A program made the position numbers and the translations under genes. The notes under the pieces were generated by a model. That model did not search any database, was not told the DNA's origin, and saw nothing but the letters and a program-made list of their open reading frames with translations. 51,634 bases of DNA from a virus. Its lineage: Duplodnaviria > Heunggongvirae > Uroviricota > Caudoviricetes. The stretch is from the IMG/VR virus record IMGVR_UViG_2579779024_000005; one strand, given 5' to 3'. Below, piece after piece: positions 34,760 to 47,741 of this stretch; within the stretch, counting starts at the first letter, position 1; each line of letters starts with the position of its first letter.

Positions 34760-35206
34760 GGAGTTTACTCACATCTGACAAAATCAATATAAACAGCCCC
34801 TCCGGAGAGGGGCTGGAGAGTGGCGCTATGTGCCATTGCATGGTGCCGGGTGCCTCCCGGTGAATTCAGTACCAGCACCTGAATCCGCGATTATCCCATA
34901 TACCTACTCGCTGATTGCCCCTCCGCACAGGGGGATTCACCATGCCAGTTTCTTTTAACAAACTCCCCGCAAACCAGACAACAATCAACCGCCTGAATTG
35001 TGAAGTATTTAAAAATTTCTCCCGCTAACTGATACCCGGCTAACAGTCTGGCGTTTTCTTTTTCAGCAACGGGAAAGCAACAACCACCACACCCGCCACC
35101 AGCACACCGTCAGCCAGCACTGACATTATCCGGCTGCAGCAATGCCATTCACAAAAACAGTAAGCAATCACTTTTTACCGTAACCGGTGATAATCCAGAT
35201 ATGTAT

Positions 35207-35670: not shown

Positions 35671-35747
35671 TGGCGCGCTGTACTGGATTCGAACCAGTGA
35701 CCGATTGCTTAGAAGGCAATTGCTCTGTCCGGCTGAGCTAACAACGC
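35671..35747 (-). tRNA. argO: tRNA-Arg (anticodon UCU)
   Basis: 77-nt cloverleaf: acceptor GCGTTGT/ACAGCGC, D-stem GCTC/GAGC, anticodon stem ATTGC/GCAAT with loop CTTCTAA, T-loop TTCGAAT, encoded CCA. Confidence 0.85.
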
Positions 35748-35847
35748 TGAATACCGATAATGGACCGCCATCGGGGACCCGCCCCCGCACCAACAACCCT
35801 GTTATCGTGTCGTCTGCTCTTCCTGATAAGCTAATGGCGGTTTGTGA

Positions 35848-35923
35848 TGGTGGCCCTTGCTGGATTTGAACCAGCGACCTGGCGATTATGAGTCGCTCGC
35901 TCTCACCACTGAGCTAAAGGGCC
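35848..35923 (-). tRNA. ileZ: tRNA with CAU anticodon, ileX/ileZ-like (tRNA-Ile2)
   Basis: 76-nt cloverleaf GGCCCTTTAGCTCAGTGGTGAGAGCGAGCGACTCATAATCGCCAGGTCGCTGGTTCAAATCCAGCAAGGGCCACCA; close to the E. coli ileX sequence as recalled. Confidence 0.8.
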
Positions 35924-40293: not shown

Positions 40294-40449
40294 TTACTCC
40301 TCAGGTTCGTAAGCTGTGAAGACAGCGACCTCCGTCTGGCCGGTTCGGAGTCGTACCTCGCAGAGGTCTTTCCTCGTTACCAGTGCCGTCACTATGACGG
40401 TTAAACAGATGACGATCAGGGCGATTAACATCGCCTTTTGCTGCTTCAT
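40294..40449 (-). CDS. hok: Hok/Gef-family type I toxin
   Basis: MKQQKAMLIALIVICLTVIVTALVTRKDLCEVRLRTGQTEVAVFTAYEPEE; the listed 70-aa ORF extends upstream in the mok-like region. Confidence 0.85.
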   Translation of the reverse strand: MKQQKAMLIALIVICLTVIVTALVTRKDLCEVRLRTGQTEVAVFTAYEPEE

Positions 40450-40686
40450 AGCCTGCTTCCCCTTGCCTTTCGGCACGTAAGAGGCTAACCTACATTTGTG
40501 AGACATAGATTGGGCCTCAGATTAATGTTAAGCGTCTTGCAGGACGCGAAATGTTAACTGGGGCTTTTCTCTATCTGCCTTTCAGTGTTCATGCCTGAGA
40601 CAGATAGCCTCAAGCACCCGCAGCCATTCTACTTAACTCACGTCACCTCGCCAATATGAAATCAATCAGAAAGGTGATCCATAAAA

Positions 40687-44497: not shown

Positions 44498-44923
44498 TTA
44501 GTGCATCACCACAGCATTCCCTGCCGGGCCGCCGCGATTCATCTGGTCATACAAAACAACCGCTGACGCAACAAAATCATCGACATCCTTCACCAGCCGA
44601 TCCCGCCGTTCGACGATCTCACGGTAATATTCAGAACTGTGGCTGCGCATACGGGCCACCAGCAAAGGCGGCATCGCCTTTTCGATCGCCGGTAACAGAG
44701 CCTGCATTTTTTCAACAGCATCAGGGGTGTCTTTATCCAGCCAACGGAAAATTTTCTGGGTATTACGGGCCAGGGCTTCCGGATGGCTGTCGTCATACAG
44801 TTCCGGGAACGTCATTCCCAGCTCGAAATACGCTTTGGTAATTTTCGCAGCCGGCACTTTTTCGCCGTCCGGATGCGCCCAGGCATTCATCGCCATGCGG
44901 ATGTGTTCATGCTTGATTTTCAT
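44498..44923 (-). CDS. YdaT-like protein (cII position)
   Basis: 141 aa; begins MKIKHEHIRMAMNAW; lies directly downstream of the cro-like gene. Confidence 0.45.
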   Translation of the reverse strand: MKIKHEHIRMAMNAWAHPDGEKVPAAKITKAYFELGMTFPELYDDSHPEALARNTQKIFRWLDKDTPDAVEKMQALLPAIEKAMPPLLVARMRSHSSEYYREIVERRDRLVKDVDDFVASAVVLYDQMNRGGPAGNAVVMH

Positions 44924-45135
44924 GAATCATTCTTTCCTTCGTTCGAGGTGCTATCCTGCTTCTTGTAAAGTTCTGGGTTGTATTTCAATTCACCGTTAGT
45001 AATTTCATCCAGTTCCATTGCGCGAAGTTTGGGAATAACTGCTTTCCACCGCACAACAGCCACATGTGAAATTCCAAGAGCCTCAGCTACTAGTCGCTTT
45101 TTTTTGAAATAGCGCAGAACATCATCTTTGAACAT
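44920..45135 (-). CDS. cro: Cro-like HTH regulator (YdaS-like)
   Basis: 71 aa; HTH (RLVAEALGISHVAVVRW); divergent from the repressor gene. Confidence 0.65.
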   Translation of the reverse strand: MFKDDVLRYFKKKRLVAEALGISHVAVVRWKAVIPKLRAMELDEITNGELKYNPELYKKQDSTSNEGKNDS

Positions 45136-45226
45136 AAAACTCTCCTGTTATTTCGAGCAGAAGGGTAACAATAGTTACATAACAATGTCAACCATAGCAA
45201 CATCACTTGGTAGTAACATTGGTTAC
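45136..45226. promoter_or_regulatory. Immunity-region operators (OR-like) and divergent promoters
   Basis: Two palindromic sites, GTAACAATAGTTACAT and GTAACATTGGTTACAT. Confidence 0.5.
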
Positions 45227-45901
45227 ATGAAAAACACTATCAGCGAACGTATTCGGAATCGTCGAAAAGACGTTGGATTAACCCAACAGCAGGTTGCGAA
45301 AGCAATCGGCATATCTCGTGTATCCGTAACAAAATGGGAAAATGGCTCTTCAAAACCTGACGGTGAGAATTTGTATCTACTGTCAAAATTGCTTTCCAAA
45401 TCTCCTGAATGGATTCTTTATGGAAAGGACGGTCACGATAAAACCGATGATCTGCGTCTGAATCAGTACCCTTACATTAGTGACAACATCGCCCGGTTGC
45501 CCGTTTTAACGTGGGAACAGGCTGGTTATTGGGATATGAGTTGTCCAGTAACCAAGATTCCTGGTATTAAGAACTGGGTTGATGTCATGACAAAAACCGC
45601 TGAAAACTCTTTTTTATTGCATGTTGAGGGAGATGCGATGACAAACTCTAACGGCCTCCCAACCATCCCCGACGGATCTACCGTGCTGATCACACCATGC
45701 TCAAGTAACATTAGAGAACTGGTGGGAAAAATAATCTTAATCCAATTGGAAGGAACGCCAAACGTAACACTAAAAAAAGTTGCGATTGACGGACCAAACA
45801 TCTATCTGTTGTCACTGAATCCGCTTTACAAACCCATCGAACTGAATGGTGGTTACACCATTAAAGGTAAAGTTTCACAAATACATCAATACTTAGACTG
45901 A
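45227..45901 (+). CDS. cI: CI-type repressor (HTH plus LexA/S24 autopeptidase domain)
   Basis: The listed ORF starts at TTG 45128; the likely start is ATG 45227. N-terminal HTH (LTQQQVAKAIGISRVSVTKWENG) and C-terminal S24-like domain. Confidence 0.85.
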   Translation: MKNTISERIRNRRKDVGLTQQQVAKAIGISRVSVTKWENGSSKPDGENLYLLSKLLSKSPEWILYGKDGHDKTDDLRLNQYPYISDNIARLPVLTWEQAGYWDMSCPVTKIPGIKNWVDVMTKTAENSFLLHVEGDAMTNSNGLPTIPDGSTVLITPCSSNIRELVGKIILIQLEGTPNVTLKKVAIDGPNIYLLSLNPLYKPIELNGGYTIKGKVSQIHQYLD

Positions 45902-45905
45902 GTCA

Positions 45906-45932
45906 GAACCCGCATTCATTGCGGGTTTTTTA
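45906..45932 (+). terminator. Intrinsic terminator after the repressor gene
   Basis: acccgca-ttcat-tgcgggt followed by tttttt. Confidence 0.55.
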
Positions 45933-45964
45933 TGCCCTCAAATGTACCTTTTGCAACATTGTAT

Positions 45965-45995
45965 TGACTCGAAAGGTAACTCTTGTTACCTTAAC
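45965..45995 (+). promoter_or_regulatory. OL-like operator with candidate pL
   Basis: TTGACT -35-like hexamer followed by the palindrome GGTAACTCTTGTTACC, which matches the OR half-sites. Confidence 0.35.
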
Positions 45996-46173
45996 AACAT
46001 ACCAACCCACCCCGCCCCACAGAACGCCGGGCAATACTTCGAGTTACCAAGCAGTGGTCAGGGGGTAAGTAGCCAGCCCGAGGCGTAAGAACATGACGGC
46101 AGGGTTCAACTTTAATAACTATGCAGCAGGTTTTTGTTCCGCTCCCCCGGCGTTAAGGGGAAATGAGGTCAGC

Positions 46174-46329
46174 ATGGATACTATCGATCTTGGCAACAGC
46201 GAATCTCTGGTATGTGGCGTGTTCCCCAACCAGGACGGCACGTTCACCGCAATGACGTATACCAAAAGCAAAACGTTTAAAACCGAAAATGGTGCCCGTC
46301 GCTGGCTGGAAAGAAACTCAGGTGAGTGA
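46174..46329 (+). CDS. ydfA: YdfA-like small protein (dicB operon)
   Basis: MDTIDLGNSESLVCGVFPNQDGTFTAMTYTKSKTFKTENGARRWLERNSGE. Confidence 0.65.
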   Translation: MDTIDLGNSESLVCGVFPNQDGTFTAMTYTKSKTFKTENGARRWLERNSGE

Positions 46330-46330
46330 T

Positions 46331-46459
46331 ATGGATTTCGACACAATCATGGAAAAGGCTTACGAAGAATACTTCGAAGGCCTTGCCGAAGGCGAAGAAG
46401 CTCTCAGCTTCAGTGAGTTTAAACAGGCGCTTTCCAGCTCGGCAAAATCTAACGGCTGA
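46331..46459 (+). CDS. ydfB: YdfB-like small protein
   Basis: 42 aa, MDFDTIMEKAYEEYFEGLAEGEEALSFSEFKQALSSSAKSNG; not in the ORF track because it is under 60 aa. Confidence 0.55.
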   Translation: MDFDTIMEKAYEEYFEGLAEGEEALSFSEFKQALSSSAKSNG

Positions 46460-46488
46460 TAAGCGAAGCAGCACCGCGAGGAATCAGT

Positions 46489-46707
46489 ATGCAGAAACGA
46501 GAACCCGTCATCATCGCGCCAGACTATACCGATGATGAACTTTATGAGTGGATGCGCCAGAAAATTAATGCAGCGCAGGATCTGAAATGGGCCAATGAAG
46601 CCAGGACTAAGCAGGCTGAAAATCTGTCCGCTCTGGAGCAGGATATCACCAGGCTGGAAAAAGCAGCGGCATTAAGCATTGCCAGAATGGTTACATACCC
46701 GCGTTAA
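46489..46707 (+). CDS. ydfC: YdfC-like small protein
   Basis: 72 aa, MQKREPVIIAPDYTDDELYEWMRQKINAAQDLKWANEARTKQ... Confidence 0.65.
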   Translation: MQKREPVIIAPDYTDDELYEWMRQKINAAQDLKWANEARTKQAENLSALEQDITRLEKAAALSIARMVTYPR

Positions 46708-47046
46708 TAGCTAACCAACGAAGCTAAGGTTGGTAATTAAGGAGTTCTCCACGGGTCAGGTGGAGTGCGTGCGCCGGACACGGGTGAACATCCGGCACTG
46801 ACAGTTTACTGAAAGGATATGTCCCTGAAAAGTCAGGGCATAAAGCGAAAGCGCACGGCGAAATTGGTCTCTCTGTACGGTGTCGTTAAATTTAGTTCGA
46901 CCGTGCGCTTCCGGTTGTGGCACTCCGCGAAATGGCGCGGCGGTAAGTATGGCGGGGTTATTCCTTCCTCCGTTGAGGACACCGGGTTGTCAGGTTGACC
47001 ATACGCTTAAGTGACAACTCCGCTGCAACGCCCTCTGTTATCAATT

Positions 47047-47102
47047 TTCTGGTGACGTTTGGCGGTATCAGTTTTACTCCGTGACTGCTCTGCCGCCCTT
47101 TT
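47047..47102 (+). ncRNA. dicF: DicF small RNA (cell-division-inhibitor sRNA processed from the dicB operon transcript)
   Basis: TTTCTGGTGACGTTTGGCGGTATCAGTTTTACTCCGTGACTGCTCTGCCGCCCTTTTT matches the DicF sequence as recalled; it lies in a 560-bp ORF-free region. Confidence 0.75.
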
Positions 47103-47272
47103 TAAAGTGAATTTTGTGATGTGGTGAATGCGGCTGAGCGCACGCGGAACAGTTAAAACCAAAAACAGTGTTATGGGTGGATTCTCTGTATCCGGCGTTA
47201 ATTGTTAACTGGTTAACGTCACCTGGAGGCACCAGGCACCGCATCACAAAATTCATTGTTGAGGACGCGATA

Positions 47273-47461
47273 ATGGAAACGTTATTACCAAACGTTAATA
47301 CGTCTGAAGGTTGTTTTGAAATTGGTGTCAATATCAGTAACCCTGTATTTACTGAAGATGCCATTAACAAGAGAAAACACGAACGGGAGCTATTAAATAA
47401 AATATGCATTCTTTCAATGCTGGCCCGTTTACGTCCGATACAAAAAGGATGCTGGCAATGA
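47273..47461 (+). CDS. dicB: Cell division inhibitor DicB
   Basis: 62 aa, METLLPNVNTSEGCFEIGVNISNPVFTEDAINKRKHERELLNKICILSMLARLRPIQKGCWQ. Confidence 0.85.
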   Translation: METLLPNVNTSEGCFEIGVNISNPVFTEDAINKRKHERELLNKICILSMLARLRPIQKGCWQ

Positions 47462-47649
47462 ATACAGCATTTGCACTTGTTCTGACAGTTTTTCTTGTTT
47501 CCGGAGAGCCAGTTGATATTGCAGTCAGTGTTCACAGGACAATGCAGGAGTGTGTGACTGCAGCAACCGAACAGAAAATTCCCGGTAACTGTTACCCGGT
47601 CGATAAAGTTATTCACCAGGATAATAACGAAATCCCGGCAGGTCTTTAA
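47458..47649 (+). CDS. ydfD: YdfD-like small membrane/lysis protein
   Basis: 63 aa, MNTAFALVLTVFLVSGEPVDIAVSVHRTMQECVTAATEQKIPGNCYPVDKVIHQDNNEIPAGL. Confidence 0.7.
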   Translation: MNTAFALVLTVFLVSGEPVDIAVSVHRTMQECVTAATEQKIPGNCYPVDKVIHQDNNEIPAGL

Positions 47650-47741
47650 AACAGTTCCGTAATAAATATCCGGTTTCATTCTTATATGCCAGCAATGGCA
47701 GGGATTTGTTCACCCTTAAATCTGTAATGAGGTAAAACAAA

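Follow-up and report, generated by a model that had tools for sequence, protein, structure and literature searches.

A dicBF-type operon with a DicF RNA identical to that of K-12 in a near-complete lambdoid prophage of Escherichia coli

The virus record IMGVR_UViG_2579779024_000005 of IMG/VR is a stretch of 51,634 nucleotides (nt) of Caudoviricetes DNA, here called the window, and carries a cluster of small genes built around a non-coding gap. With great confidence we identify this cluster, ydfA-ydfB-ydfC-dicF-dicB-ydfD, as the early-left dicBF operon of a lambdoid prophage whose insertion site adjoins ompW. The DNA has the same gene order as the Qin prophage of Escherichia coli K-12, a DicF RNA identical to the K-12 RNA, a full-length DicB, and a non-coding stretch that is structured and highly conserved. 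A preliminary description made from the sequence had named a dicB-type operon with DicF and DicB on a prophage, and this is borne out by the covariance model, the identity to K-12, Pfam, and the RefSeq annotation of identical DNA. The operon is an ordinary copy of a system already known, DicF and DicB having been studied since the late 1980s. The activities of DicF, DicB and YdfD would be those of the tested K-12 molecules, to which the versions found here are identical or nearly so.

The non-coding segment contains the small RNA (sRNA) DicF.

47046-47103, plus strand: DicF sRNA, 53 nt at 47046-47098, plus the U-tract to 47103 (Rfam RF00039; K-12 identity; hairpin fold)

An Rfam scan for DicF was the check named beforehand, and over the whole window RF00039 matched 47047-47098 on the plus strand with 76.7 bits against a gathering threshold of 48 (E 2.9e-15), covering positions 1-52 of the 52 in the model. 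Positions 47046-47098 agree with dicF of K-12 (b1574) in 53 of 53 bases. The RNA ends in a GC-rich 3' hairpin (GGCGGUA.../...UGCCGCC, 47061-47097, -15.9 kcal/mol) followed by UUUUU at 47099-47103, and it is flanked by ydfC and dicB in this lambdoid prophage. In K-12, DicF represses the translation of ftsZ (PMC10448788, PMC5069750), and the complete identity to the tested RNA argues that it would do so here. A predicted RNAduplex pairing of DicF with the K-12 ftsZ region from -76 to +45 reaches -38.5 kcal/mol and spans the ribosome-binding site, with 57 of 500 shuffles doing as well. The practical value of the finding is one of annotation, since DicF is easily missed: RefSeq lists only the protein genes ydfA/B/C, dicB and ydfD in identical chromosomes, with no dicF non-coding RNA feature, whereas the K-12 record annotates dicF.

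The protein genes of the operon were called from the RefSeq annotation of a 100% identical chromosome together with comparison to K-12.

46174-46329, plus strand: ydfA, 51 amino acids (aa) (Pfam DUF1391, 94.5 bits; RefSeq; 49/51 aa as in K-12)
46331-46459, plus strand: ydfB, 42 aa (RefSeq; 42/42 aa as in K-12)
46489-46707, plus strand: ydfC, 72 aa (RefSeq; 69/72 aa as in K-12)
47273-47461, plus strand: dicB, 62 aa (Pfam PF05358 over its full length; 54/62 aa as in K-12)
47458-47649, plus strand: ydfD, 63 aa (Pfam DUF1482; 59/63 aa as in K-12, where it is annotated 'lysis protein')

All five open reading frames (ORFs) are intact. DicB matches PF05358 with 124.9 bits (threshold 27) over residues 1-62 of 62. 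The K-12 protein inhibits division in a MinC-dependent manner (PMC10448788, PMC5069750), and at 87% identity the copy described here probably acts through MinC as well. YdfD, a lysis protein in K-12 (PMC8835842), is the product of a third toxic gene, a role that the preliminary description had missed. That description also began ydfA at 46093, which is incorrect: similarity to K-12 sets in only about 40 nt ahead of the ATG at 46174, where the Pfam match starts, and the 78-aa ORF from 46093 is just the longest reading.

Between ydfC and dicB lies a gap of 565 nt (46708-47272). It had been described as an ORF-free segment of 560 bp; two mechanically called ORFs of 59 and 44 aa do lie inside it, though neither looks coding. 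A different account would have the gap or its antisense strand encode an unannotated protein, the candidates being the 59-aa ORF (46819-46998, plus strand) and a 201-aa ORF (47074-47679, minus strand), both of which appear in the mechanical ORF list. The first is not conserved as coding, because a 1-nt indel breaks it relative to K-12 and many other related copies. The second is split into 111 and 71 aa in K-12, and RefSeq annotates neither. Coding potential was rejected for both the gap and the antisense frame on these grounds, and we consider a hidden protein extremely unlikely.

Read as RNA, the gap has features that fit the dicBF operon. The segment 46708-47272 folds with -214.6 kcal/mol (z = -4.9 against shuffles), and 46901-47272 is the best-conserved part of the region, with a column identity of 93-99% by sub-segment compared to 58-85% in the flanking protein genes across 99 loci, figures biased upwards in the DicF part by the selection of the loci with a 25-nt DicF word. 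Four elements surround DicF.

46760-46928, plus strand: interrupted long-range helix of 22 bp, 46760-46783 with 46901-46928 (minimum-free-energy fold)
46851-46908, plus strand: local stem GCGCACGG/CCGUGCGC around a hypervariable loop (ensemble probability 0.67)
46909-47045, plus strand: conserved 5' part of the 190-nt precursor (96% column identity, 99 loci)
47106-47257, plus strand: perfect 21-bp helix, 47106-47126 with 47237-47257, enclosing further hairpins (fold)

For K-12, a single transcript from dicBp is processed into the sRNA (PMC10448788, PMC9438474, PMC5069750). RNase III makes the 5' end of a 190-nt DicF species and RNase E that of the 53-nt DicF (PMC10448788), and a 72-nt form arises by RNase III cleavage of read-through transcripts (PMC9438474, PMC5069750). 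The evidence for processing in the window is positional, in that the ends deduced from the published lengths of 190, 72 and 53 nt fall into predicted helices or loops. A 72-nt RNA starting at 47046 would end at 47117, inside the 5' arm of the 21-bp helix, which stops 3 bases short of the dicB Shine-Dalgarno sequence and was likewise absent from the preliminary description. The 5' cut by RNase III, placed solely by counting 190 nt back from the terminator, is predicted at about 46909-46914, directly 3' of an 8-bp stem and in the middle of the long-range helix, which makes this helix a candidate for the structure that RNase III cuts to form the precursor's 5' end.

The 8-bp stem, gcgcacgg/ccgtgcgc, had been pointed out before as fitting the known processing of DicF. 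It exists and is conserved, its correct position being 46851-46858/46901-46908 rather than 46846-46902; the published ends are better matched by the longer helix and the 21-bp helix. The local stem and the long-range helix are in part mutually exclusive, competing for 46901-05. In an alignment of 96 distinct dicF loci from viral contigs, the local stem is 98.4% paired across 95 distinct sequences with one-sided changes only, the long-range helix shows 84% of cells paired and no covariation, and the 21-bp helix is 98.5% paired with variation consisting mostly of G-C/G-U/A-U exchanges. These counts cannot decide between the local stem and the long-range helix.

The gap is long, and older work (mentioned in PMC10448788) suggested that DicF might be made from a promoter of its own within the ydfC-dicB gap instead of by processing of the operon transcript. 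For the locus studied here such an origin is highly improbable. The promoter scan marks no promoter-like site on the plus strand between 46708 and 47046, and in K-12, primer extension together with rnc/rne mutants assigned the 190- and 53-nt ends to processing and found no internal promoter (PMC10448788). The gap of this copy is about 95% identical to K-12 and fully so over ~46995-47239.

Processing of an operon transcript begun upstream of ydfA is the origin of DicF that we favour. The following elements are relevant to the control of the operon.

44920-45135, minus strand: cro-like gene, divergent from the repressor gene (Pfam P22_Cro, 59.4 bits; RefSeq Cro/CI family regulator)
45165-45226, no strand assigned: OR-like region with two exact GTAACnnnnGTTAC palindromes at 45165-45178 and 45213-45226 (motif search)
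45185-45901, plus strand: CI-type repressor with a helix-turn-helix and an S24 peptidase domain (Pfam HTH_3 and Peptidase_S24; alignment with lambda CI 3bdn)
45907-45931, plus strand: terminator-like hairpin AACCCGCA-TTCAT-TGCGGGTT followed by TTTT, after the repressor gene (read from the sequence)
45964-45992, plus strand: candidate PL-like promoter, TTGACT (45964-69), 17 nt, TACCTT (sequence and operator motif)

Exact copies of GTAACnnnnGTTAC occur at three places only in the 51.6-kb window: 45165 and 45213 in the cro/repressor intergenic region, and 45976. Matches with at most one mismatch would be expected 0.66 times by chance in the window. The third copy (45976-45989) sits in the spacer of the candidate promoter upstream of ydfA. 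Because the operator palindrome is common to the cro/repressor region and the DNA upstream of ydfA, silencing of the operon by the lysogen's repressor, as the preliminary description had proposed, gains support; it is plausible that the prophage repressor acts at GTAACnnnnGTTAC over the PL-like promoter. The promoter itself is less clear.

Several observations weigh against the assignment or against parts of it. The proposed -10 element is weak, agreeing at 3 of 6 positions, and a sigma-70/terminator scan of 44800-47800, which also overlooked both the DicF terminator and the hairpin that follows the repressor gene, called no plus-strand promoter upstream of ydfA; because of this the promoter proposal rests on the reading of the sequence and the operator motif. 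The repressor is not DicA, and an Ala stands where its catalytic Ser should be. Of the 62 residues of DicB, 8 differ from the K-12 protein, and 4 of these changes fall within the final 8 positions. The predicted DicF-ftsZ duplex does not go beyond shuffled sequences (-38.5 against -33.4 +/- 4.2 kcal/mol, 57 of 500 as good), the comparison being crude and non-discriminating. The 5' arm of the long-range helix is missing in about one fifth of the related loci, which carry other upstream modules. Finally, two-sided covariation is almost absent from all helices among the related dicF loci, because their sequences barely vary; the structures thus rest on energy, conservation and the published RNA lengths. 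For the local stem, the long-range helix, the 21-bp helix, the DicF hairpins and the anti-DicF pairing discussed below, the covariation counts neither prove nor disprove any helix.

The missing promoter call also speaks for a rival account, that of a silent relic, in which the sequences are intact, no promoter serves them, and DicF and DicB are never made; that the DNA upstream of ~46135 is unrelated to the dicBp region of K-12 points the same way. Yet all five ORFs have stayed intact, and no part of the module is better conserved than its non-coding core. Moreover, the -35-like TTGACT is overlapped by the same operator palindrome as the cro/cI pair, which is the layout expected of PL, and inducible as well as isolated phages carry the module. 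We therefore judge a silent relic very unlikely.

For a functional dicBF operon, the experiments in K-12 and the anatomy of the locus suggest the following course of events. In the lysogen, the CI-type repressor would bind GTAACnnnnGTTAC over the PL-like promoter at ~45964-45992 and keep the operon off. Once repression is lifted, one transcript would start upstream of ydfA, and a part of these transcripts would stop at the DicF terminator (47098-47103). RNase III would cut the long helix at ~46909-46914 to give a precursor of ~190 nt, from which RNase E, cutting at 47045/47046, would release the 53-nt, Hfq-binding DicF. In read-through transcripts, RNase III would cut within the 47106-26/47237-57 helix, yielding the 72-nt DicF and a separate dicB-ydfD mRNA. 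DicF would then block the translation of ftsZ, among other targets, DicB would direct MinC against the FtsZ ring, and YdfD would be lytic.

The repressor itself bears on how repression might be lifted. It aligns with lambda CI over both domains, keeps the Ala-Gly cleavage site (WEQAGYW, lambda HVQAGMF) and the catalytic Lys (TLKKV), and has Ala where the catalytic Ser belongs (VEGDAMT, lambda VEGNSMT; GDAM, codon GCG at 45635). The Ser/Lys dyad of RecA-cleavable LexA/CI-type (S24) repressors is thus broken. The Ala is common to relatives at 98%, 88% and 68% identity. Ser is kept in two relatives, of 87% and 65% identity, and in almost every more distant one; most relatives read GDSM or GESM, and the 45%-identical P0022 reads DDKT. 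Classical Ser-to-Ala mutants of LexA and CI show no self-cleavage. By this comparison the repressor is predicted not to cleave itself, and direct SOS induction appears doubtful. As a candidate sign of an SOS-controlled antirepressor, the LexA box CTGTn8ACAG was searched for; its one match, at 5544-5559 in the tail-fibre region, is at chance level (44 of 100 shuffles), and the window holds no convincing antirepressor LexA box.

A second peculiarity emerges from the fold of the 190-nt precursor. Here 46929-46958 is predicted to pair with the 3' half of DicF (47076-47103) and to displace the terminator hairpin, at -68.7 kcal/mol compared to -63.1 with the terminator forced; the probability of the terminator stem falls to ~0. 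The anti-DicF segment is invariant, so covariation has no power there. According to this model the pairing could sequester DicF until RNase E acts, or it could govern read-through into dicB.

The spacer that follows DicF is a further point of interest. It agrees with K-12 in 173 of 174 nt between DicF and dicB, and 47096-47305 on the plus strand aligns with the whole Rfam model STnc100 (RF02076) at 38.7 bits (E 2e-6), below the gathering threshold of 47; related loci score 35.6-37.4 bits. The late region of this prophage contains a genuine STnc100 (34785-34974, minus strand, 132 bits). The spacer has the closing helix of STnc100 and, in common with the true copy, the motifs UGGUGAAU and UCACCnGGAGGCACCnGGCACC, a likeness to STnc100/PasD. 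Set against this are the sub-threshold score, the location in an early-left operon as opposed to the late region, and the lack of a clear counterpart to the STnc100 terminator hairpin. In some related phage contigs (L056, 578-1057, minus strand; L063, 8229-8438, plus strand) dicB is replaced by IsrK and C4, with IsrK (67.7 bits) and the C4 antisense RNA (81.9 bits) coming after DicF and the STnc100-like spacer. Because these follow instead of dicB, DicF and the spacer appear to travel as a unit with differing downstream cargo. A 2026 preprint ties STnc100 to PasD and makes no mention of DicF.

Taken together, these features allow a joint reading that we put forward tentatively and regard as rather unlikely: a non-cleavable repressor uncouples dicBF and the prophage from RecA-stimulated self-cleavage, and the DicF stretch is more than a scaffold for processing. 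Within this joint reading, the spacer may be a diverged relative of STnc100/PasD that moves with DicF even where dicB has been replaced. Both features of this copy, the repressor lacking the Ser and an extra role of the DicF stretch, may be undescribed so far. If the repressor indeed cannot cleave itself, derepression would need another trigger, another route to the outcome reached by the truncated DicA of Qin. If the anti-DicF segment (46929-46958) acts as modelled, the balance between termination and read-through into dicB could depend on it.

The surroundings of the operon provide its genomic context.

47742-51634, plus strand: 823-aa exonuclease at 47742-50213, excisionase at 50278-50526 and integrase at 50504-51634, following ydfD (Pfam, RefSeq)

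The exonuclease carries the Pfam Rv2179c-like exonuclease domain, and in an identical genome ompW follows the integrase. In the other direction from the operon come the CI-type repressor, the cro-like gene, replication genes, a Q-type antiterminator, tRNAs, and lysis, head and tail genes. The arrangement is equivalent to lambda's early-left (PL) operon, and the operon is carried by a near-complete lambdoid prophage, not a Qin-like remnant. Over 45 kb, the window and the prophage of an identical genome agree at 99.9-100%, and the match extends to an ISEc12 insertion in lom. This IS21-family element interrupts the lom-like gene at ~5900-8200 (L123 37156-39458), and several fragments of pseudogenes lie towards the tail-fibre end of the window. 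Two tRNA genes (35674-35923, minus strand), Ile and Arg in the identical genome, lie downstream of the Q-type antiterminator, and a Sok antitoxin RNA (Rfam, 120.5 bits) is found beside hokD at 40444-40619 on the minus strand.

The module is widespread. Many complete E. coli chromosomes contain the segment 45900-47750 at 100% identity, with the five operon genes annotated there by RefSeq, and a related copy occurs in 4771 of 5426 complete E. coli genomes, at a median of 2 and a maximum of 10 places per genome. Chromosomes from human isolates, identical at 100%, are its best matches; the records named O25b:H4 and JJ1887 are among them. In addition, 59 phage records match, isolated phages included, one of which annotates DicF. 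The context is mildly useful in itself: in human-associated E. coli, a near-complete prophage carries a toxic division-inhibitor module together with a repressor that looks unable to cleave itself, which bears on when prophage-borne regulators of this kind get expressed.

Among known systems, lambda Kil and Rac KilR are small FtsZ inhibitors encoded in a PL-side operon and kept off by the repressor, an arrangement that DicB probably shares. In sequence, Kil and KilR are unrelated to DicB, and they are not known to be accompanied by a DicF-like RNA inhibitor. The closest counterpart is Qin of K-12 (ydfABC-dicF-dicB-ydfDE), with the same gene order, identical YdfB and DicF, and a non-coding region that is 94-100% identical, helices at the mapped RNase III sites included. 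The immunity region, in contrast, is unrelated. K-12 has DicA (135 aa, without a peptidase domain), DicC and its own dicBp, whereas the corresponding parts of the prophage described here are a CI-type repressor of 238 aa that includes an S24 domain, a P22-Cro-like protein, and operators unlike those of Qin. Qin is also a remnant in which IS2 disrupted ydfE and intQ, while this prophage has kept exonuclease, xis, int, replication, lysis, head and tail genes. Similarly, the dicF/dicB module of enterohaemorrhagic E. coli (EHEC) O157:H7 is found on lambdoid prophages of full size, and one genome may have several copies (PMC5069750). Records of PPompW phages, a name for prophages integrated at ompW, align with part of the query at 94%. 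The EHEC and PPompW copies differ from the one described here in their flanking genes.

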